64,000 bases of DNA, from the IMG/VR virus record IMGVR_UViG_3300015607_004069, positions 1-64,000 of that record. One strand, 5' to 3'. The stretch is from a virus (taxonomy: Duplodnaviria; Caudoviricetes). Position 1 is the stretch's first letter, and each line of letters starts with the position of its first letter. A program made the translations under genes and the position numbers. Shown here piece after piece: positions 15,186-26,727 of the stretch. The notes beneath the pieces were generated by a model. The model saw only the letters and a list, made by a program, of their open reading frames with translations. It made no database searches and was not told where the DNA came from.

Positions 15186-18122
15186 ATGATATTTAATATC
15201 GTTGATAACTTGGATGTTTTTGTCACTCAGGCACCAGCGAATCATCTGGCTGCTATAAACAAGTATTTCACCGTTTCCTTAATAGATTGTGGCAAGAGAT
15301 ATTTTGGTCATACCAACCAGTCTCCGGTCGTCAATTTCTTTGATTTTAACAAGGGCAGAATCAATTTACAGTTGCTGCCTGATTTGATTAAATTCTGTGA
15401 TAAATCTGGTTTTCCTTATCAGATTGTTGATTCTCGTCCAGAATGGCCACATCAGTCTTTGACAGCAGATCAAATTGGTCCGGATTTTCTAGCTGGAATT
15501 GCATTAGAAAGCTATCAGCTAAGATGCATTCGTGCTGCCTGCGATGCGGATTTTGGAATTATAGATGCAGTGACTGGTAGCGGTAAATGTATCGTTGGAG
15601 AATCAAAAGTTGTTGTCAATGGAGTAGAATGTGAAATAGATCAATTGTTTTTAGGTGTTGAGCCAGAGCAGATAGTAGATGTTTCCAAAAGAAAGCTTTA
15701 TGTTTTTGGGCCAAATGGTCACTTAAAGATAAATGCTCTTTATAAAACTGGTAGACGTAGGATATTAAAATTGACGACTGAAAATGGTGCTGAGTTGAGA
15801 GGGGTTCATGAACATCGGATTTATACTAAACGAGGCTGGGTTCAATTAAAGGATTTGAAGAATGATGATGAAACCCAAATTCACCCAGAGCTATGCATTG
15901 GAAATAGGAATAAAGCCGTATATTACAAGAAGAATGTGGAAGAGAGCGGGCAAGAGACGTGGGCAGATGAGAGCAGCCCCATTTGTCAGTTCGTTGTGTG
16001 CATTGTGCGAGAACAGATTCGAGAAGTCTCTGAGAACATTCATTCACGGAGTAGAGCATTTCAAAAAGCCGCTTTGCCAGAGATGTACATCGTCTCAAGC
16101 TACGAAAGAAAATGTTGCGGCGAATCGGCACAAACATCGGAAGAATTGGGATCGCTTTGTTGCCATTTCGAGAGCCGCGAATCCGATGAAGAACAAAGAG
16201 ACAGTAGAGAAAGTCTTGCAAACTTGCAGTCAGAGGTATGGTGTCAGAGTAGCGGCCAATGTACCATGGGCAGACAGGTCTATGGCGAAAATGAAAGAAT
16301 TGCAAACGAAAAAGATGAACGGTACTTTGCCAAATTCGGTGATGGTAATAAAGAAATTCAGAAAAACAATGGCTGCGAAATCAGCAGAAGAGATAGCAGC
16401 GATAAAAACCGCCAAACTGCAGACGTGGCACAAGAATCACCAGACAGCGGATGCTATAGACGAGTTATATGCGCGAGTTCACAGAATTCGAACCAAGCAT
16501 GTGGATACGAGATTTGGAGTTCTGGCTTACCAGAGCCAATTAGAATTGAAATTCATAAGACTATGCGAAGACTTGAGTCAAGTTCAAATGATTACAAGAG
16601 GTCCGACTATCAACCTAAAAAATTCGTGGTACTTGTCAGACTTTTTAGTGAAGACAAAGACCAAACAGATGATAGTAGAGATAAAATCGAAGTTTTTATT
16701 CATTCAGAAGAAAATGAGTGTCTTGTTGAAGAAGAAAGCGGCAATGAGGTACGCGAGAATACAAAATATGGAGTATCATTTGCTGATTTGCTCAAAATCA
16801 GCAGAAATGGCTTCTGTGATGGCGAAAATTGGTCTAGAGTAAGGAGTATTGAAAATGATGGGGTTGAATACTGTTATGATTTTCAATTGGCCGATCCATC
16901 ACATGCTTATTGGACAAATGGAATATTGTCTCATAACACTGAAATGATGGCCGCTATCTGTAAAATGAATCCCGGTTGCAATACGGTGATTCTGTCGGAA
17001 CAGCGAGTCGTTATCGAGCAGATTTCTGAACGTTTACAGCTTCGTGATGTGAAAGACGTTGGTCTGTTTTATTCTGGTAAATCGCCAGACGGGCAGTCGA
17101 TTGTCATTGCCTCGGTTCAGTCATCTACTAAGATTAATAAGACCAATGTTGAAAAGCCGATTCAGTCGTCTTATAAGACGGTTGATGCTTATGTGAAAGC
17201 GTTGACTAAGTATGAATCGATGATGACTGGATTCAAGAATAGAAATATCAGGGCAGAAGAATTACGGGACATTATAAAGCAAGCCGACATGCTTTTGGTT
17301 GATGAGTGTGATCTGGCTGTGAGTTCCATGTATCGGTCGATACTGAGAATATTTTTTAAAGGCCGTAAGCGATATGGCTTCACTGGATCTGTCTTTGATA
17401 AAGACAAGAAGCTGCAATCGATGAAAATGCGGTCGTATCTTGGACCGATTATCGCTAGGGCTTCCAGAGAGGAAGTGCTGGCCGCTGGTCGAATAAATGA
17501 TGTAAGATACACCATGATTGTCTTCACTGGTGCTCCAGAGGAAGTTCATGATTCATCTATGCTTAATATTGCCATAGATGAAAAATTGACGGCCAATATC
17601 AAGTACCACAAGTTATTGAATGGTCTTTGTGATTTTCATGTGGATGAAAAAACGTTGATTCTGGTAGAAAGCAAAAAGCTAGGTGCTGCTCTTGAAGAAT
17701 ATATTCCAAATTCGGTTTTCATCTGTGGCGATACTAGCTCTAAGGCTAGAAATGCTGCTGTGGAGAAGTTCAGAACTGGTGAAATCAAGATTCTGATTGG
17801 CGGTAAGATTCTTAAGAGGGGATTTGATTTGAAAGGCGGTTTCGACAACATTATCTTGTCTACTGGTGGAAAATTAAGTTCTGATTTTAGACAGAGGCTG
17901 GGAAGAGGATATAGGCGAAGTGCGCGTGGATATACTAGAATATATGATTTCATGTTTCGAGTTAATAAATATCTTTATAGTCATTCTCGTGAGAGATTGA
18001 AGACAATAGTCAAGCTTGGTATAAAGACTGTTGTGATATACCCAAATGGATTCAAAATAGATGGCGCAGACCTCGTCAAACGCAATTTCAACGTTGGTAA
18101 AAACTGGCGACAAACCAGTTAA
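15186..18122 (+). CDS. uvsW: UvsW-like superfamily 2 helicase precursor containing an intein in Walker A
   Basis: After removing aa 135-584: TGSGK/T Walker A, LLVDECD, GFTGS, RQRLGRGYR helicase motifs. Confidence 0.85.
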   Translation: MIFNIVDNLDVFVTQAPANHLAAINKYFTVSLIDCGKRYFGHTNQSPVVNFFDFNKGRINLQLLPDLIKFCDKSGFPYQIVDSRPEWPHQSLTADQIGPDFLAGIALESYQLRCIRAACDADFGIIDAVTGSGKCIVGESKVVVNGVECEIDQLFLGVEPEQIVDVSKRKLYVFGPNGHLKINALYKTGRRRILKLTTENGAELRGVHEHRIYTKRGWVQLKDLKNDDETQIHPELCIGNRNKAVYYKKNVEESGQETWADESSPICQFVVCIVREQIREVSENIHSRSRAFQKAALPEMYIVSSYERKCCGESAQTSEELGSLCCHFESRESDEEQRDSRESLANLQSEVWCQSSGQCTMGRQVYGENERIANEKDERYFAKFGDGNKEIQKNNGCEISRRDSSDKNRQTADVAQESPDSGCYRRVICASSQNSNQACGYEIWSSGLPEPIRIEIHKTMRRLESSSNDYKRSDYQPKKFVVLVRLFSEDKDQTDDSRDKIEVFIHSEENECLVEEESGNEVRENTKYGVSFADLLKISRNGFCDGENWSRVRSIENDGVEYCYDFQLADPSHAYWTNGILSHNTEMMAAICKMNPGCNTVILSEQRVVIEQISERLQLRDVKDVGLFYSGKSPDGQSIVIASVQSSTKINKTNVEKPIQSSYKTVDAYVKALTKYESMMTGFKNRNIRAEELRDIIKQADMLLVDECDLAVSSMYRSILRIFFKGRKRYGFTGSVFDKDKKLQSMKMRSYLGPIIARASREEVLAAGRINDVRYTMIVFTGAPEEVHDSSMLNIAIDEKLTANIKYHKLLNGLCDFHVDEKTLILVESKKLGAALEEYIPNSVFICGDTSSKARNAAVEKFRTGEIKILIGGKILKRGFDLKGGFDNIILSTGGKLSSDFRQRLGRGYRRSARGYTRIYDFMFRVNKYLYSHSRERLKTIVKLGIKTVVIYPNGFKIDGADLVKRNFNVGKNWRQTS
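15588..16937 (+). mobile_element. Intein (450 aa) in helicase P-loop, with an out-of-frame endonuclease gene in its insertion slot
   Basis: Starts CIVGESKV after GSGK; block B-like GVHEHRIYT..GW..LKDL; ends YCYDFQLADPSHAYWTNGILSHN followed by Thr(+1). Confidence 0.92.
15862..16842 (+). CDS. Putative homing endonuclease (Zn-finger, helical DNA-binding repeats, C-terminal PD-(D/E)xK/TnsA-N-like domain) in the +1 frame inside the intein
   Basis: 326 aa; CALC...CQRC; NPMKNKETVEK..QT...RYGV; YQSQLELKF...YLSDFLV...IVEIKS...KKKAA..YA....EY nuclease pattern; AAGGA upstream of the ATG. Confidence 0.8.
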   Translation: MMMKPKFTQSYALEIGIKPYITRRMWKRAGKRRGQMRAAPFVSSLCALCENRFEKSLRTFIHGVEHFKKPLCQRCTSSQATKENVAANRHKHRKNWDRFVAISRAANPMKNKETVEKVLQTCSQRYGVRVAANVPWADRSMAKMKELQTKKMNGTLPNSVMVIKKFRKTMAAKSAEEIAAIKTAKLQTWHKNHQTADAIDELYARVHRIRTKHVDTRFGVLAYQSQLELKFIRLCEDLSQVQMITRGPTINLKNSWYLSDFLVKTKTKQMIVEIKSKFLFIQKKMSVLLKKKAAMRYARIQNMEYHLLICSKSAEMASVMAKIGLE

Positions 18123-21100
18123 GCCAAAGGTTATGTATTTTGTCAATGAAAAAGTCGAATACGCCTTAACAAAATACATCTGGTCTGGCTGTACTGACGT
18201 GGCATTGCGTGATATGGTTATGTCGAACGCATCAGAGCTTATCAGGCAAGTCATTAAGAAACAGGGTCTGGCTGAGATCTATCCCGGAAAAGAAGAGTCG
18301 TCCTTAGGCGATCTGCACCAGATAGCTTGGTGCGTTTGTCCTAACACTATTATTATAACCAAATCCGGCATACAGCCGATGTATGAGATGTTTTGCCCAT
18401 CAATATATCATATTAGTGGTGGCGGTGTGGTGCCGATTAGTGATAGTCAGCGTAATGGTGAAGAACCCGTTGTGTGTCCCGGAAAGGCTGTCGATGTTTT
18501 CGGTTATCATGGGCTAAAATCGACAACTGACTTTTATCTCAATTTGCATAATCAGCCTGTTCGAAAAGTAACGTCAAAATACGGATACAATCTGATCTGC
18601 AGTTTGGACCATCCACACCGGGTTTTGACTAAATCTGGAATCAAGAGCATTCCGACCAAGAAGTTGAAAATTGGTGATTTGGTTGGCGTTCAATATAATC
18701 AACAGTGTTTTGGTAATCAGGATGATATAAACTTCGTTCCGAAGACTACTGGCGGCACCACTAAAGATTGGAATCCTCCAACCAAATGGACTCCTGATCT
18801 TGCATATATTGTTGGGCTGTTAATTTCAGAAGGATCACTGGAAAAGTATAGGACTGTCATTTATAATGCAGATCAGGCGGTCATTGATAGATTGCAAAAT
18901 AACTCTGTCGGCCTTGAATTCAAGTATGATGCAAGCAATATATCTAGCACGACTCATTGTCGTCGATTTGCTGAGTTCCTTGAATACATTGGTTTGCATC
19001 AGGGAATGCATTCTAGTACCAAGATGATACCGCAATGTATGTTGAAATGTTCTAAGGAAATTATTGTCGAGATGCTGAGAGGTATGTTCGATGGCGATGG
19101 ACATTCTAACAAGAATATCGGTGTAGTCGGATACTCGTCATCGTCTCCGGAATTGATAGAAGTTCTTCGGGTTTTGTTGCTTAATTTTGGCATCGTCTCG
19201 AAGACTTCTTATAGCGAACGCGGATTATGTCCGAATCCTAAGGGTGGTATGTCTGAGAGACTGCCAGAATACCAACTGCTGTTGTCGTCTGAAGACTCTG
19301 CTAAATTCTACCAATCTATTGGGTTTGGTATTCCTTATAAGCAGGTAAAGGCGAAGAGCTTAACATCGCAACCATGGTTATTGATTGACAAAATAACAAC
19401 AAAACACTTGCAAGATGTTCTGAGGGATGTCAGTCCTGCCACTATTCGCAGAGTCACAGGATTTAAGAAGCGAAACCTTGTTAAAGGCAAGCAAATGCGA
19501 CTGAACACATTTGCTCATGTAGTTATAACTCTTGAGTTAAACCAGACCGATAGGTTTTTGGCTAATAGATTATCTGAGTATATTGGTAATACTGATGACT
19601 CAAGTAAGATGATCTGGTTGCCAGTCGAGGATATCGAAGAGCGTGAAAATCAATTAGTAGTTGATATTGAAGTGCCAGATAGTGGAACTTTCACTGCCAA
19701 TGGTATTGTGACATCAAATTGCCAAATTGAACGTGTGCTTTACAAATTCAGATCCTACCCGCATTGTCGTGTCTGTTTTAATCCAGATAGACCGCCAGAT
19801 TCCTTGCTCTACTGTCAGGATGATAATGAATATGGCATTGTTATGATTGAAGAGCTGCTGGAAAATGGCATTAGCAAATGCCCTAATTGTGGAGCTGTAT
19901 TGAGTAATGACTATTGTATCGAGCCAGAGACAGGGATTTATGGTGGTTCACCTACCGTTCTTTATCGTGGTCCGTCCAAATTGTTTAACATGTGGTGTGT
20001 CAGCCCTGAGACTATGCTGTTAACCAGCAATGGTATTGATACAATTGGAGACGTAGTTAGTTATTCTAATGCTTATCCGCCTAAAGTTTATGGTCCGTGT
20101 GGATTGCAGCCTGTTAATGGTGTACTATCCAAACCAGAAACAGCAACTAGAATCATCAAGACTCTGCTCGGATACGAGATCGAATGTTCTCCAGAGCATG
20201 GATTATATAAGCTTGAAAATGGAATTCCGACTAGAGTCGAGGCAGATACGTTAAAAGCAGGTGACTTGCTTGGAATTCAGTTTAACCAGCAGTTATTTCA
20301 AAATCTTGACTCATTAAAAGACCTGCCAAAATATGACACATGGAATCGGCCAGATTTAATGACAGATGAACTGGCTTATATTGTCGGTCTGTTTGTGGCG
20401 GAGGGATCATATTCCTATGGTAAATTGGTAATATATAATATTGATCGTGACGTGATCGATACTTTGGTGAAGAATACTTTAGGTCTAAATTTTATCCACG
20501 AGCCGCAATTTCAAAGAGTGTCGTTGTGCAATGTTGAATTTATTGATTTTATGATCAAATTCGGATTCCCTGAACGGACTGAAGCCACAACAAAGATGAT
20601 TCCGCGACGTATGCTTTTGTGTTCTAGAGAATTGATAGCAGCATGCTTACGTGGGATGTTTGATGGCGATGGGCACTCTATTAAGCACAATGGTTGTGTC
20701 GGCTATACGTCTACTTCTAAGAAGCTGACAGCTCAAGTGCGAATGTTATTGTTAAATTTTGGTATCTTGACCAAAATAAGCTATGATAAACGAAAAATTA
20801 GAAAGTTTATTAAGAAGAAAACTGGTAGAATGTATGTGAGTAAGTTAGCGGAGGCTGCTCAGCTTTTGCTTTCGGCTTCTGATTCAAAGAGATTTTATGA
20901 AAAAATCGGATTTGGTATCGATAGAAAAGCAGTCAATGTCGATGGTCTGACTGAGAATAACAAGGAATTTCATTATTGCTTTAATGACCACTTTAGAGCA
21001 TTGTATGCGAGATATGGATGTGGTTCCCTCGGCTATGATTCGATTAGACGAGCCATCAGGACCAATCATTGTACTGTCAAATCGGCAATCGCCGCTTTGG

Positions 21101-21720
21101 AATCGTGGAGCGAACATGGGACTGATGCTGACGTTGTGGCTATTAAACAGAGAATTGATGAGATCACACGTTCACAGAACAATATCAAATGGTTGCCGAT
21201 CAAATCAATCAAAGATGGTTCCAGCAAACTAGTTGAAATCAGTATAGATCATGAAAGCCATGCGTATATTGCCAATGGCATATGGTCATCGAATAGCCAG
21301 ATTAGCAAGACAGTTATTTTAGCTCACATCAAAAAGGATTCGCGTGATCGTGTCAAAAAAGGTTTTTCGATTTATCGTAGCCATTTGAGACATAAAAGTG
21401 CGAGAAAACATCGTAGCAATATTACTGACAAGTCAGTTATTGAACAATTTGTGGAAGATGTCCGATTGGCGGTTAAACATGACAGTCGGTTTGACCAGTT
21501 ACCTGACTGTTTACTGGCTCTGGCTATGAATGATTCCAATCCTTATATGAACATCACTAATAAGTTAACCGATCTTTCTGGTCTGCCTCGTCAGACTATT
21601 AAATCATTTATGATGACGATTAAAAATATGTCTGGATCTTTTGTTTTGCCCACTGAGATATCAAAAATGCCGTCTTGGATGACCGAACATCAGCATCAGG
21701 AGAATGAAGATGCAGAATAA
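18061..21720 (+). CDS. Probable gp55-like late sigma factor precursor with two inteins (spliced product about 323 aa)
   Basis: Spliced extein MYFVNEKVEYAL..Y...DLHQIAW/CQIERVLYKF...KLFNMW/SQISKTVILAHIKKD resembles sigma70 region 2 / T4 gp55; lies just upstream of the terminase genes. Confidence 0.6.
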   Translation: MAQTSSNAISTLVKTGDKPVKPKVMYFVNEKVEYALTKYIWSGCTDVALRDMVMSNASELIRQVIKKQGLAEIYPGKEESSLGDLHQIAWCVCPNTIIITKSGIQPMYEMFCPSIYHISGGGVVPISDSQRNGEEPVVCPGKAVDVFGYHGLKSTTDFYLNLHNQPVRKVTSKYGYNLICSLDHPHRVLTKSGIKSIPTKKLKIGDLVGVQYNQQCFGNQDDINFVPKTTGGTTKDWNPPTKWTPDLAYIVGLLISEGSLEKYRTVIYNADQAVIDRLQNNSVGLEFKYDASNISSTTHCRRFAEFLEYIGLHQGMHSSTKMIPQCMLKCSKEIIVEMLRGMFDGDGHSNKNIGVVGYSSSSPELIEVLRVLLLNFGIVSKTSYSERGLCPNPKGGMSERLPEYQLLLSSEDSAKFYQSIGFGIPYKQVKAKSLTSQPWLLIDKITTKHLQDVLRDVSPATIRRVTGFKKRNLVKGKQMRLNTFAHVVITLELNQTDRFLANRLSEYIGNTDDSSKMIWLPVEDIEERENQLVVDIEVPDSGTFTANGIVTSNCQIERVLYKFRSYPHCRVCFNPDRPPDSLLYCQDDNEYGIVMIEELLENGISKCPNCGAVLSNDYCIEPETGIYGGSPTVLYRGPSKLFNMWCVSPETMLLTSNGIDTIGDVVSYSNAYPPKVYGPCGLQPVNGVLSKPETATRIIKTLLGYEIECSPEHGLYKLENGIPTRVEADTLKAGDLLGIQFNQQLFQNLDSLKDLPKYDTWNRPDLMTDELAYIVGLFVAEGSYSYGKLVIYNIDRDVIDTLVKNTLGLNFIHEPQFQRVSLCNVEFIDFMIKFGFPERTEATTKMIPRRMLLCSRELIAACLRGMFDGDGHSIKHNGCVGYTSTSKKLTAQVRMLLLNFGILTKISYDKRKIRKFIKKKTGRMYVSKLAEAAQLLLSASDSKRFYEKIGFGIDRKAVNVDGLTENNKEFHYCFNDHFRALYARYGCGSLGYDSIRRAIRTNHCTVKSAIAALESWSEHGTDADVVAIKQRIDEITRSQNNIKWLPIKSIKDGSSKLVEISIDHESHAYIANGIWSSNSQISKTVILAHIKKDSRDRVKKGFSIYRSHLRHKSARKHRSNITDKSVIEQFVEDVRLAVKHDSRFDQLPDCLLALAMNDSNPYMNITNKLTDLSGLPRQTIKSFMMTIKNMSGSFVLPTEISKMPSWMTEHQHQENEDAE
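18331..19719 (+). mobile_element. Intein 1 (463 aa) with LAGLIDADG homing endonuclease
   Basis: CVCPNT start; CSLDHPH block B; LAYIVGLLISEGS and MLRGMFDGDG; ends VVDIEVPDSGTFTANGIVTSN + Cys. Confidence 0.92.
19996..21294 (+). mobile_element. Intein 2 (433 aa) with LAGLIDADG homing endonuclease
   Basis: CVSPET start; ECSPEHGL block B; LAYIVGLFVAEGS and CLRGMFDGDG; ends SHAYIANGIWSSN + Ser. Confidence 0.92.
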
Positions 21721-22762: not shown

Positions 22763-24664
22763 GTGGCTAGACTGACTTCCACACAGAGGGCAATTGTAGA
22801 GAGATGTAGGAATGATCCTATTTTCTTTATTGACAATTTTATGAAGGTCAAGCACCCTAAGGCTGGTCTGCTTCCGTTTAAGACTTGGGGATATCAGCAG
22901 AGAATTGTAAAAGCTACCAGAAAACACAGATTTAACATAACTCAGAAGCCTCGTCAGGCTGGTGTGTCGAAGATAGCAGGCGCTCTGTGCCTGCATACTG
23001 GCTTATTCAGTACGCATGCTAAAGTCTTAATTGTGTCTAGAAAAGACGATGATGCTATGGACTTCTTGTCCGATAATGTCAAGATTCCGTTTTTTAATTT
23101 GCCAGAATGGATGCAAGCGATCTGGGGTGAGCCAAAAAACAATGAGCATGAGTTAGAATTCAAGAGCAATGGTTCTCAAATTAGGTCTTTGACTTCTAAT
23201 CCGAATGTTTTGCGTTCACACGCCAGTACATTCAATGTGATTGATGAGGCCGCTCACATTCAGGGCATGGGCAACCTCTGGGCTTCAGGCTGGTCTACGT
23301 TGCAGCATGGTGGTCGTGTCTTGGCTATTTCGACCACTAATGGTATAGGTGACTGGTTTTGGGCTACCTGTACTGAAGCTGAAGCCGGTATCAATGTATT
23401 CAATCTGATTAAGATTGATTGGACAGAAATGACATGGGCTATTGAATTCAAAGACAATATCACAAATAAGATGGTCCGTATCGCTCCTACGGATGGCATC
23501 AGAAAATGTGTGACTAAGGAAGAGATTGAGAAATATGGTGAGTACTGGTCGCCATGGCTGGAAGAACAATATAAGGGTCTAGTGGAGAAGGGTGAACCTT
23601 GGAAGTTCGAGCAGGAAGTACTGGCACGGTTTGTTGGATCTGGTCGCACTATTATCGATAAGATGGCGATAGCCAATGCTAAATTGAATATCGCTGATGA
23701 ATACGAAAAAGTAACCTCTAATGCGACTGTCTTCTATATCAGGGGCAATCAGGAAGAGGAATTTTCCTTTGATATTGATGAGCCGAAGCAGGGCCTGTAC
23801 ATCTGGGAGCATCCGCCAGAGGGCGATGGTGTATCTAATTATGTCATCGGGGTTGATTTTGCAACTGGTAAGGGAAATGACTACCATGGTCTTCAGGTAT
23901 TAAATTCTGATACTAGAAGCCAAGCAGCCGAATTGATGATCAGGAATAAACCTCATGAATTTCTGCGTATGCTGGTGTGGTTGGCGATTTATTATAAGAT
24001 GGCGTTGATAGTTCCGGAGCGAAATAACGGTGGCGATCCGTTGATTGATAATCTGCTGTATGATTGGGGCTATACTAATATCTGGCGTGAAATCAAGCCG
24101 AATACCAATCCTAGGTCAAAGAATAAAGAGGTGTCTTATGGTAAGCATGGCTTCTTTACTAGTGAGACATCTAAGGCGACTATCGTTCGTGCTCTGAATC
24201 AGAATATAACAGCAGATGAGAATACTTTTAAGGTCTATAGCAGGCGTTTGATTGAGCAGTTTGAAATATTTATTAGGCGCAAGGACAAGTCTGGTAGAGA
24301 TACTGGCCAGATCGGTGCCGAAGCCGGACCCGGAAATTTTGATGATTTGGTTATGGCCTTTGGTCTGGGCTTGATTGGTTGTCGTGATGCCATGCCAATT
24401 GATAAGGAGATAATGCAGATCTGGAGGTCTGACAGGCTCCCATCGCAGAGTGCAATTGGTGTTATCAATAAGCCTAATAATGGTCAGAGTATGAGGACTC
24501 AAATATCTAAGCTGTCCGATTTGACCAAGTCTTATTTGCCTGCGCTGGTTGGTGAGCAGTCAAATGACTATGACCCTAGTGAAGATATATTGAGTAGCGT
24601 ACTTAAATCGGTGGGCGAACTGAATGTTCCAGCTGTTGTGGCCCCTAAGCATCGCTTTAAATAG
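22763..24664 (+). CDS. terL: Terminase large subunit (T4 gp17-like)
   Basis: DPIFFIDNF, KPRQAGVS Walker A, VIDEAAH Walker B, ISTTNG, IGVDFATG and DDLVMA nuclease motifs. Confidence 0.95.
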   Translation: MARLTSTQRAIVERCRNDPIFFIDNFMKVKHPKAGLLPFKTWGYQQRIVKATRKHRFNITQKPRQAGVSKIAGALCLHTGLFSTHAKVLIVSRKDDDAMDFLSDNVKIPFFNLPEWMQAIWGEPKNNEHELEFKSNGSQIRSLTSNPNVLRSHASTFNVIDEAAHIQGMGNLWASGWSTLQHGGRVLAISTTNGIGDWFWATCTEAEAGINVFNLIKIDWTEMTWAIEFKDNITNKMVRIAPTDGIRKCVTKEEIEKYGEYWSPWLEEQYKGLVEKGEPWKFEQEVLARFVGSGRTIIDKMAIANAKLNIADEYEKVTSNATVFYIRGNQEEEFSFDIDEPKQGLYIWEHPPEGDGVSNYVIGVDFATGKGNDYHGLQVLNSDTRSQAAELMIRNKPHEFLRMLVWLAIYYKMALIVPERNNGGDPLIDNLLYDWGYTNIWREIKPNTNPRSKNKEVSYGKHGFFTSETSKATIVRALNQNITADENTFKVYSRRLIEQFEIFIRRKDKSGRDTGQIGAEAGPGNFDDLVMAFGLGLIGCRDAMPIDKEIMQIWRSDRLPSQSAIGVINKPNNGQSMRTQISKLSDLTKSYLPALVGEQSNDYDPSEDILSSVLKSVGELNVPAVVAPKHRFK

Positions 24665-24673
24665 GGCGTTGAA

Positions 24674-26632
24674 ATGAGTTTCAATTGGGCAATGTGGGAT
24701 AGAATACGTCTTCTCAATAAGACGCATAGACTATATCAGAATGATAGGACTATTCAGGATCAGACATCTCTTTCTACTATAGGAAGAGATTTAGGAATAA
24801 ACAATCTTCGGCGTTCACAGCTATCCGCTGACAGTCTATTTGCCACTCAGACAAACCGGTTTGCACGATATCGCGATTATGAGATGATGGACCATGGCGA
24901 ATTAGCCTTGGCTTTAGATATCCATGCTCAGGAATCATGCATTACCGATCCTGAGACTGGTCACTCGTTGATAATCAAAGCATCTAGTTCAGTAGTAAAA
25001 AAGGAACTGGAAGAACTCTTTTTTAACACTTTGAATTGGGATAGTGTTGCCTATGCAGCTGCTAGATACCTATGCAAATATGGCGACAACCCTTTCGAAA
25101 TCATACCGACAGTAGAGCGTGATGGTGTGGCGGCAATTAAACACATTGAAGTCAGAGAGTTCACCAGACTAGAAACACGCAATGGCGATCTGATTGGTTT
25201 CTTCTATAGCCCAGAATTGGCTACCAACCAGCCAGTTTTTATGCATCCATGGCGTATGGTTCATATGCGTCTTGATTGTCTGGAGAAGGACTTCAAGCCA
25301 TATGGTATGTCTATTATCGACAGATCACGATCAGACGCTAAGCGTGTGCGCCTGGTATCGGAAGGTGCTATAATCTATCGATTGACACGAGCCACAGAAC
25401 GCAAGAAATTCAAGATTCCTATCGGAAACATTCCAGCCAAGGAAATACCAGAATATTTGAACGTCATTGCTAGAGCCTATAAACGGAAACGCATCTTCGA
25501 TCCTAGAACCGGCACTTTCGATGAGAAATACTCTCCGCTGATTCAGGAAGATGATTTCTTTCTGCCGCAACGGCCAGATGGTCAAGGCATTGACATTGAT
25601 AATCTGCCGGGCGGAGCCAATCTCGATAAAATCGATGATTTGGAATACTTCAAGAAGCAGATGATTGCCCCTACGAATATTCCTCCTGCGATGCTAGGAG
25701 TAGGTGAAGGTGCTGGCCAGCCAACCAAGGAACCATTGTATTCTATTTCTTATCATTTTGCCAGATCTATTGAGCGAGTACAAAGAGCTATAGCCCTTGG
25801 ACTAAAGAAAATAGCTATTGTTCACTTACTATTGCGCGGTTACTCTATAAATGATGTCAAAAATGTCGATCTGTATCTGCCTATTGGGTCTGCCATTGAA
25901 GAATTATATAGGATGGAAACATGGCAGACTCGCGTCAGTGTGATGGCTGATTTGAAGGATCTAGAGTGGTTTCCTAAGGAATGGATTGTTACGAAGTTCA
26001 CTGATCTAACACCAGATGAGATCATTGAATTGAATGAAATGATCAAGATGATGGGTGCAGATCCTGCAGCCGTCAGTGATGGATCTGGTGGTGGCGGTGG
26101 AGGCGGTGGTGGTCTACCTGATATTGGTGATCCTGAAGATGCTTTAGCTGATGTTGAGAATTTAGATCAGTTGGGTAATGATTTAGATGCTGCGGGCGAC
26201 GAAGGTTTGGATAATGCACCTGCTGAAATGGCTGCGATTGAAGAGGACGTAAGGCAGCAGTCTAGGATGCGGAAGAAACGTCAGATGCTTAAGATTCTAA
26301 GCGAATGGCATATGAAAAAGGTCAGCAACAGGACTCTGGCCAGCGGATATAATTACATGAATTGCGCCGGTGAATTCAGACTTATTACTGAGTCTAAACG
26401 CACCAGCGACGGAGAATACAAGCTGCTTTCCGAGTCGGTAGTTTCTGAAATAGATAATCGTTCCTTCGGATATAACAATGATGAGATTAAAATGATCACC
26501 AAAGTTGCTACTATTTTGTATAGGAATAACAAAAAGCAAGTCCCCGGTGCTTTAGTGACAGAATCTGTTGATATTGCCGCCTTGAATGAAGTAATTGCAG
26601 GCGATAAGATATTAATTAAATCAAATATATAA
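24674..26632 (+). CDS. Portal protein (T4 gp20-like)
   Basis: RYRDYEMMD, KYGDNPF, PYGMSII, IIYRLTRA.ER..F.I.IGN.P, EDDFFLP.R, LPGGANL..IDD.EYF. Confidence 0.93.
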   Translation: MSFNWAMWDRIRLLNKTHRLYQNDRTIQDQTSLSTIGRDLGINNLRRSQLSADSLFATQTNRFARYRDYEMMDHGELALALDIHAQESCITDPETGHSLIIKASSSVVKKELEELFFNTLNWDSVAYAAARYLCKYGDNPFEIIPTVERDGVAAIKHIEVREFTRLETRNGDLIGFFYSPELATNQPVFMHPWRMVHMRLDCLEKDFKPYGMSIIDRSRSDAKRVRLVSEGAIIYRLTRATERKKFKIPIGNIPAKEIPEYLNVIARAYKRKRIFDPRTGTFDEKYSPLIQEDDFFLPQRPDGQGIDIDNLPGGANLDKIDDLEYFKKQMIAPTNIPPAMLGVGEGAGQPTKEPLYSISYHFARSIERVQRAIALGLKKIAIVHLLLRGYSINDVKNVDLYLPIGSAIEELYRMETWQTRVSVMADLKDLEWFPKEWIVTKFTDLTPDEIIELNEMIKMMGADPAAVSDGSGGGGGGGGGLPDIGDPEDALADVENLDQLGNDLDAAGDEGLDNAPAEMAAIEEDVRQQSRMRKKRQMLKILSEWHMKKVSNRTLASGYNYMNCAGEFRLITESKRTSDGEYKLLSESVVSEIDNRSFGYNNDEIKMITKVATILYRNNKKQVPGALVTESVDIAALNEVIAGDKILIKSNI

Positions 26633-26635: not shown

Positions 26636-26727
26636 TTCAGGCCGTATTTGGGCTACGGCACCTGCGCGTGGTGAAGTCAACCATATCGCGAAGCACAAAG
26701 CAGCCCTATCAAACGAAAGACTGGACC

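Follow-up and report, generated by a model that had tools for sequence, protein, structure and literature searches.

A probable phage sigma factor interrupted by two LAGLIDADG inteins within its region 2

Introduction

Natural inteins, as catalogued to date, reside mainly in enzymes of replication, repair, nucleotide metabolism and packaging. In bacterial sigma factors, region 2.2 forms the surface that binds the beta-prime clamp helices, and region 2.3 holds the promoter-melting aromatic cluster. A highly divergent, phage-encoded sigma-2 domain is found in gp55 of phage T4 (PDB 7D7C / 7D7D chain F). Inteins and sigma factors have been brought together by design, in engineered sigma factors for which artificial split inteins were placed in extracytoplasmic function (ECF) sigmas (PMC7090010, PMC8044194). 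Here we describe a gene in a stretch of 64,000 nucleotides (nt) from a Caudoviricetes virus (positions 1 to 64,000 of IMG/VR record IMGVR_UViG_3300015607_004069; hereafter the window) that appears to encode a sigma-like protein interrupted by two inteins.

We consider it likely that the extein of this protein is a sigma-70-superfamily initiation factor of an uncultured jumbo phage, that it needs both inteins to be excised, and that these inteins are homing elements. The first-pass annotation of the window, made from the sequence alone, had called a sigma-factor host for inteins highly unusual. As far as the searchable literature goes this stands: full-text searches, which included a 2025 actinophage intein survey and jumbo-phage papers, turned up no natural sigma-factor intein, only the engineered split-intein sigmas. 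It does not stand for nature at large, as more than a third of the cluster representatives of this protein family bear an intein. The inteins themselves are canonical in kind; it is the sigma-factor host that is the unusual part.

Results

Two full-length inteins in a single open reading frame

The plus-strand open reading frame (ORF) at 18061-21720 is a single open frame of 1219 amino acids (aa), in which the inteins make up 463 + 433 = 896 aa and the extein 323 aa. Its parts, as delimited by the ORF call and by alignment to intein-free homologues, are as follows.

18061..21720, plus strand: precursor gene, predicted sigma-like factor with two inteins (1219 aa)
18061..18330, plus strand: N-extein, aa 1-90, covering region 2.1 and the region 2.2 helix up to its midpoint; ends ...DLHQIAW
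18331..19719, plus strand: intein 1 (site A), 463 aa, aa 91-553, with Cys1, block B SLDH, two LAGLIDADG motifs, end TSN and +1 Cys554
19720..19995, plus strand: middle extein, aa 554-645, 92 aa, with the remaining half of the region 2.2 helix (CQIERVLYKF), followed by the Cys4 zinc-ribbon insert and the beginning of region 2.3 (SKLFNMW)
19765..19890, plus strand: Cys4 cluster of the putative zinc-ribbon insert (Cys569, Cys572, Cys607, Cys610)
19996..21294, plus strand: intein 2 (site B), 433 aa, aa 646-1078, with Cys1, block B SPEH, two LAGLIDADG motifs, end SSN and +1 Ser1079
21295..21720, plus strand: C-extein, aa 1079-1219 and stop, with the region 2.3/2.4 helix (SQISKTVILAHIKK), a helical linker, a C-terminal helix-turn-helix (HTH) domain (sigma-4-like, as a lead only) and an acidic tail

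The annotated start at 18061 overlaps the final 62 nt of the helicase gene. An alternative ATG at 18133 (Met25) corresponds to the start point of the homologue P0003, and inspection of both starts revealed no clear Shine-Dalgarno sequence at either.

Matches to Pfam identified the splicing and endonuclease domains of both elements, with PF14528 (LAGLIDADG_3) matched twice in the 1219-aa protein (125 bits) and PF14890 (Intein_splicing) matched in two stretches (49.9 bits against a cut-off of 35.8). Intein-free homologues were then recovered by a word-indexed search that used the C-terminal 141 residues as query and was confined to shorter proteins. In a three-way alignment, the window extein has 79% identity with the homologue P0002 (325 aa) and 71% with P0003 (301 aa), and the gaps of these two fall at exactly aa 91-553 and aa 646-1078, so that both inteins are precisely absent. 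The Pfam matches and these alignments together reproduce the two full-length LAGLIDADG inteins that had been proposed from the DNA alone, including their boundaries (18331-19719 and 19996-21294) and the division into 896 and 323 aa.

All of the expected splicing nucleophiles are present, as Cys91...Asn553|Cys554 in intein 1 and Cys646...Asn1078|Ser1079 in intein 2. Intein 1 begins with Cys-Val-Cys, ends with Thr-Ser-Asn and is followed by Cys554, a position occupied by Thr in intein-free alleles; intein 2 begins with Cys-Val-Ser, ends with Ser-Ser-Asn and is followed by Ser1079. The LAGLIDADG motifs of the two inteins (LISEGS / FDGDGH and VAEGS / FDGDGH) keep their acidic residues. By these sequence features, both elements are classed as class 1 inteins with predicted LAGLIDADG homing endonucleases, which would self-excise through Cys1, the terminal Asn and the +1 Cys or Ser.

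Intein 1 and intein 2 are paralogues (33% identical, E 3e-64); identity this low rules out a recent duplication of one intein, which we had considered. Their insertion points are alike, W|(C/S)QI in the protein and TGG|(T/A)GCCA(A/G)ATT in the DNA, with 10 of 12 bases shared (18328-18330|19720-19728 versus 19993-19995|21295-21303).

The extein is predicted to adopt a sigma-2 fold

When 1.84 billion cluster representatives were searched exhaustively with HMMER, 94 members of the extein family were found. Among 38 aligned intein-free relatives, seven matched PF04542 (Sigma70_r2) at E <= 0.1, and one of these, P0080, exceeded the curated threshold (26 bits versus 24, E 8e-6, profile positions 13-68 of 71). 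The extein motifs quoted in the first-pass annotation are indeed present in the window protein and show the highest conservation within the family.

The intein-free P0002 was used as a stand-in for the spliced extein in structure prediction. With a 96-sequence alignment, AlphaFold returned a model with a predicted local distance difference test (pLDDT) score of 88.3 and a predicted template modelling (pTM) score of 0.70, whereas an alignment of only two sequences gave a useless model (pLDDT 36). In structural comparisons of the P0002 model, T4 gp55 ranked first and ranks 2-34 were almost all sigma factors or sigma-2 domains, among them SigB, sigma-32, pro-sigma-K, RpoS region 2, ShbA, sigma-E region 2, SigW, SigC and SigA domain 2, although helical bundles can reach Z-scores of this size by arrangement alone. 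Full-length sigmas align structurally out to residue 299 of the model. The Foldseek list was likewise rich in sigma factors but held no row at E <= 0.001.

Taken together, the sigma-dominated structural list, the relatives that match Sigma70_r2 and the agreement of the conserved motifs leave a sigma-2 domain as the only reasonable reading, and the P0002 model shows the corresponding predicted fold. This agrees with the initial view of the host protein as similar to sigma region 2 and gp55, given that gp55 is the top structural match and is followed by about 30 sigma factors. In the ESM Atlas, used as a lead only, the whole protein lies nearest to a viral cluster that is 100% Sigma70_r2, and the named clusters nearest to the C-terminal 126 residues carry Sigma70_r4 (0.87-0.90).

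The family departs from a plain sigma-2 domain in two places. First, about 75 residues are inserted between YKF, at the end of region 2.2, and G..K.FNMW, at the start of region 2.3. This insert carries two CxxC pairs in the window protein and in 21 of the 38 aligned intein-free relatives, and its four Cys are conserved in every relative that has it; the other 17 lack the Cys4 insert, 15 of them having no insert at all and two (P0046 and P0081) an unrelated, Cys-free one. The CxxC pairs are modelled on short strands, which fits a zinc ribbon. Second, region 2.4 is followed by a helical linker, an HTH-like domain, the family-wide motif EF(S/T)DSPxN and an acidic tail that is modelled with low confidence. 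The C-terminal domain gives weak homeodomain and IclR-HTH matches, in keeping with an HTH-like fold, and no match to Sigma70_r4 was found in the 38 relatives. Within the C-terminal 25 aa (~21640-21717), the EF(S/T)DSPxN motif is followed by a variable linker and then by the acidic tail. The tail may bind a partner, its position being comparable to that of the clamp-binding tail of gp55.

Both insertion sites lie in conserved helices of region 2

We mapped the two sites onto sigma-70 using the segment aligned by hhalign and a small hidden Markov model (HMM) built from E. coli RpoD, RpoS, RpoH and RpoE. The two approaches were concordant, at the level of motifs rather than of residue-by-residue structural superposition, and pair DLxQxAW with DLIQEGN and FSMF|T with FSTY|A. 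Site A thereby interrupts the region 2.2 helix midway, separating the equivalents of E. coli sigma-70 N409 and I410, and site B separates those of Y430 and A431 in region 2.3. In the P0002 model, where Trp90 precedes site A and Trp182 precedes site B, the first site is found within helix 80-95 and the second at the start of helix 178-204. The AlphaFold model, hhalign and the small E. coli sigma HMM therefore concur with the original placement of both inteins in the conserved region-2 helices.

As the inteins split the region 2.2 helix and region 2.3, neither the precursor nor the half-spliced intermediates should be able to form a sigma-2 domain, from which it follows that activity should need both splicing events and that the precursor is presumably inactive. 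The 323-aa factor released by splicing would consist of a sigma-2 domain, whose loop joining regions 2.2 and 2.3 carries a Cys4 zinc ribbon, and a helix-turn-helix domain at the C-terminus. We infer that this mature factor binds RNA polymerase, probably that of the host, and then opens promoters.

Genomic context and a possible role in late transcription

The IMG/VR record to which the window belongs is 181,658 bp long and estimated to be 51% complete. The gene lies in the order class II ribonucleotide reductase (RNR), dCTP deaminase, helicase (with an intein), sigma-like gene, two small ORFs, large terminase and T4-type portal, and two neighbouring features matter for what follows.

15588..16937, plus strand: helicase intein (aa 135-584), inserted in Walker A at GSGK|T
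22763..26632, plus strand: large terminase and T4-type portal genes

The helicase intein is real, and the statement that three inteins sit within about 6 kb is accurate, the span being about 5.7 kb. This third intein ends SHN|T, and its middle is without an in-frame endonuclease domain; a 326-aa ORF (15862-16842) overlaps it in another frame.

Of 80 related IMG/VR loci, which lie on contigs of up to 408 kb, 78 keep the order helicase-sigma-terminase-portal; a helicase homologue flanks the gene in 79 and a terminase homologue lies downstream in 78. This conserved order marks the sigma-like gene as belonging to the core of an uncultured clade of jumbo phages. No nucleotide or protein relative was detectable in deposited phage genomes, and identity of the portal to T4-superfamily portals does not exceed 30%; membership of a wider T4-like group is the best explanation of the phage's affinities.

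The proximity of the terminase and portal genes and the resemblance to gp55 suggest that the factor may act on late genes. On the 181 kb of the record (~51% complete), neither a phage RNA polymerase with Rpb1- or Rpb2-type domains nor a sliding clamp of the gp45 or beta-clamp type was found. A k-mer screen of upstream regions returned AT-rich words only, TAAGATA was tried as a promoter element and led nowhere, and HAAATATA showed no overall enrichment. Of 21 7-mers with the same composition, AAATATA shows the strongest upstream bias: the -80..-5 windows, which cover 4.8% of positions, hold 9 of its 39 copies. The copies of (T/C/G)AAATATA at 26623, 31081, 37575(-) and 3294 of the window and at 66988(-), 84213(-), 103687(-), 123633(-) and 162429 of the record are found 12-74 nt upstream of predicted starts; some of these copies precede ORFs starting at 26668, 31109 and 37531(-), and the genes behind the copies have no PHROG annotation. 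AAATATA is thus a suggestive candidate for a promoter element resembling the T4 late box.

Weighing the sigma-factor assignment

Several results weigh against the overall reading of a sigma factor released by splicing. Searches of Pfam, PHROG and PDB sequences with the three extein pieces of the window protein, with P0002 and with P0003 gave no useful E-value, and profile-profile comparison of the family was not significant with either T4 gp55 (E 0.21) or four E. coli sigmas (E 0.16). The T4 late box TATAAATA is not enriched (2 found versus 3.2 expected). In both inteins the penultimate residue is Ser, not His, and block B reads SxxH (SLDH, SPEH) in place of TxxH. Finally, a second sigma-like ORF of 227 aa lies outside the window, at ~88214-88900 (+) of the record; it is ECF-like, with a Sigma70_r4 match of 39 bits (above the cut-off) and a weak Sigma70_r2 match, and on these matches the phage seems to carry two sigma-type factors. 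A 568-aa ORF (record ~69889-70086, plus strand) has a weak Sigma70_r2-like match of 16 bits, below the cut-off.

The one segment chosen by hhalign in the profile comparison is the expected region 2.2, with DLxQxAWxQIExxLYKF of the family set against DLIQEGNIGLMKAVDKF of sigma-70. Given that the sequence evidence for sigma membership is weak, we also considered that the extein could be some other protein built on a sigma-2-like fold rather than a free sigma for the host polymerase, which we regard as unlikely. Candidates of this kind, unlikely in the same degree, are the specificity subunit of a phage multisubunit RNA polymerase (as in AR9), a small-terminase-like or DNA-recognition packaging protein, and a decoy that blocks the host sigma. 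The position of the gene, always 1-2 kb upstream of the large terminase, would suit a packaging role, and a phage polymerase could be missing from a record that holds only 51% of the genome. However, the 181 kb at hand show no Rpb1- or Rpb2-type polymerase domains, and small ORFs that lie between the gene and the terminase are available for the role of small terminase subunit. Moreover, the best ~30 structural matches, gp55 first, are genuine sigmas that bind bacterial core polymerase, and DLxQxAW, KF and FNMW align with the core-binding and melting motifs of sigma-70.

The non-canonical residues and the second sigma-like ORF (~88.2-88.9 kb of the record) bear on a further alternative, that of a defunct or decaying gene whose inteins have lost the ability to splice, with the phage depending on its second sigma-like gene instead. 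This seems extremely improbable: the 3.66-kb frame is still open with all nucleophiles present, the exteins are 79% identical to P0002 and keep every family-conserved residue, and 78 of 80 related loci have the gene in its syntenic core position. The inteins of relatives end in HN, SN, TN, FN or YN, and because many of them have one of the last four endings, the penultimate deviation is a family trait. Inteins that lack the block B Thr or the penultimate His are known to splice. In view of the Ser residues we regard splicing as plausible rather than certain, and both inteins as putatively competent.

Distribution of the inteins and the case for homing

Occupancy was scored from domain breaks against the family HMM in the 94 representatives, at least 36 of which carry an intein at one or both of the two sites. 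The counts refer to clusters at 50% identity and are hence not allele frequencies, and several fragments begin inside an intein.

Both sites occupied: at least 4 of 94 representatives
Site A only: at least 7 of 94 representatives
Site B only: at least 24 of 94 representatives
Full-length, no intein: about 35 of 94 representatives

Intein-less alleles do occur among the relatives, with P0002 and P0003 collinear with the window protein apart from the inteins, and with about 35 full-length intein-free representatives. The +1 residue is Cys after every site A intein and Ser after every site B intein, and site B also harbours mini-inteins of 132, 154 and 191 aa. In a maximum-likelihood tree of the inteins, which was obtained by a short search without bootstrap and is to be taken as a lead only, all site A inteins form one clade (support of 95 in the Shimodaira-Hasegawa-like approximate likelihood ratio test, SH-aLRT) with three site B inteins nested within it (98). 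The sequences thereby suggest at least one jump between the look-alike sites A and B.

Patchy occupancy, intact endonucleases, degenerate mini-inteins and insertion in the most conserved motifs together describe a classical homing cycle, and it seems reasonable to suggest that these inteins are selfish homing elements, not regulators. In this scheme, the gene would have been invaded twice by related class 1 inteins, which would persist because their endonucleases cut the intein-free alleles of co-infecting relatives and then copy themselves in. We propose that they occupy the two best conserved motifs of the gene since targets of this kind cannot escape by mutation.

The first-pass annotation had raised a different possibility, that the double intein acts as a post-translational timer or sensor for late transcription, with splicing conditional on redox state, temperature or time after infection. 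In its favour, the helices that the two inteins split are critical for function, which should leave the precursor inactive, and the Cys-Val-Cys start of intein 1 and its +1 Cys could in principle form a redox-sensitive disulfide. Both also lack the penultimate His, the absence of which can slow splicing in some inteins. Nevertheless, close relatives with exteins 71-79% identical work without either intein, occupancy is patchy at both sites, endonuclease-less mini-inteins exist and the homing endonucleases of both window inteins are apparently intact; we consequently think conditional splicing quite unlikely. A stronger form would make this a clade-wide, splicing-dependent (late) sigma, in which the inteins are domesticated regulators and form a two-intein AND gate whose rate or redox sensitivity times the structural genes. 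That sensitivity would come from Cys1-x-Cys3 and the +1 Cys in intein 1 and from the penultimate Ser in both inteins, and we give this version a marginally smaller chance still.

Discussion

If the extein is indeed a sigma factor of bacterial type, as we consider likely, it extends the list of intein hosts to the initiation of phage transcription, with two sites that have been reused repeatedly in an abundant clade of uncultured jumbo phages. This gp55-like family, in which region 2 holds a zinc ribbon and an HTH domain is added at the C-terminus, also bears on the evolution of T4-type late transcription. The gene also offers a clean system in which to ask whether splicing in an essential regulator is ever conditional, and its two new intein families, with their defined junctions W|CQIE and W|SQ(I/V), are potential tools.

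Synthetic biology has built sigma switches from split inteins (PMC7090010, PMC8044194), and this gene would be their equivalent in nature. In both cases sigma activity is predicted to depend on splicing, following the same logical AND. The window inteins differ in being natural, contiguous and endonuclease-bearing.

Compared with the class 1 LAGLIDADG inteins of phage helicases, terminases, RNRs and polymerases, the window inteins have the same Hint domain, two LAGLIDADG motifs, Cys1, terminal Asn and +1 Cys or Ser. They also share insertion in the most conserved motif of an essential gene, a patchy distribution and mini-intein derivatives. They differ in that the host is a sigma-type transcription factor, that two related inteins occupy look-alike W|(C/S)Q(I/V) sites of one small domain, and that the penultimate His is replaced by Ser.

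The extein can also be compared with two-domain sigma-70 factors, either ECF-like or of groups 3-4. Its sigma-2 fold matches those of SigB, sigma-32, pro-sigma-K, RpoS, sigma-E and SigW, some relatives match Sigma70_r2, DLxQ and KF(D/E)P motifs resemble region 2.2, and the C-terminal HTH has sigma-4-like language-model features. In contrast to these factors, the window extein falls below every Pfam threshold and none of the 38 relatives matches Sigma70_r4, while the family has a zinc ribbon inside region 2, the EF(S/T)DSPxN motif and an acidic C-terminal tail.

The last comparison is with gp55 itself. Both are phage-encoded proteins with a highly divergent sigma-2 domain, and the window phage has T4-type portal and terminase genes. 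However, the window extein family has no significant sequence or profile similarity to gp55, and the extein is far longer (323 aa versus 185 aa). The minimal gp55-type architecture, region 2 only with no region 4, does not describe it, as its Cys4 zinc ribbon between regions 2.2 and 2.3 and its C-terminal helical HTH domain of ~100 aa are absent from gp55. Nor does gp55 have inteins, the EF(S/T)DSPxN motif or the acidic tail of the window family. The wider T4 system seems to differ as well, in that TATAAATA is not enriched here and no gp45-type clamp is found on the 181 kb of the record, ~51% complete. Because the zinc ribbon, HTH domain, conserved motif and tail have no equivalent in gp55, we place the protein in the sigma-70 superfamily, as a factor that probably acts in the manner of gp55, and not in the gp55 family itself.

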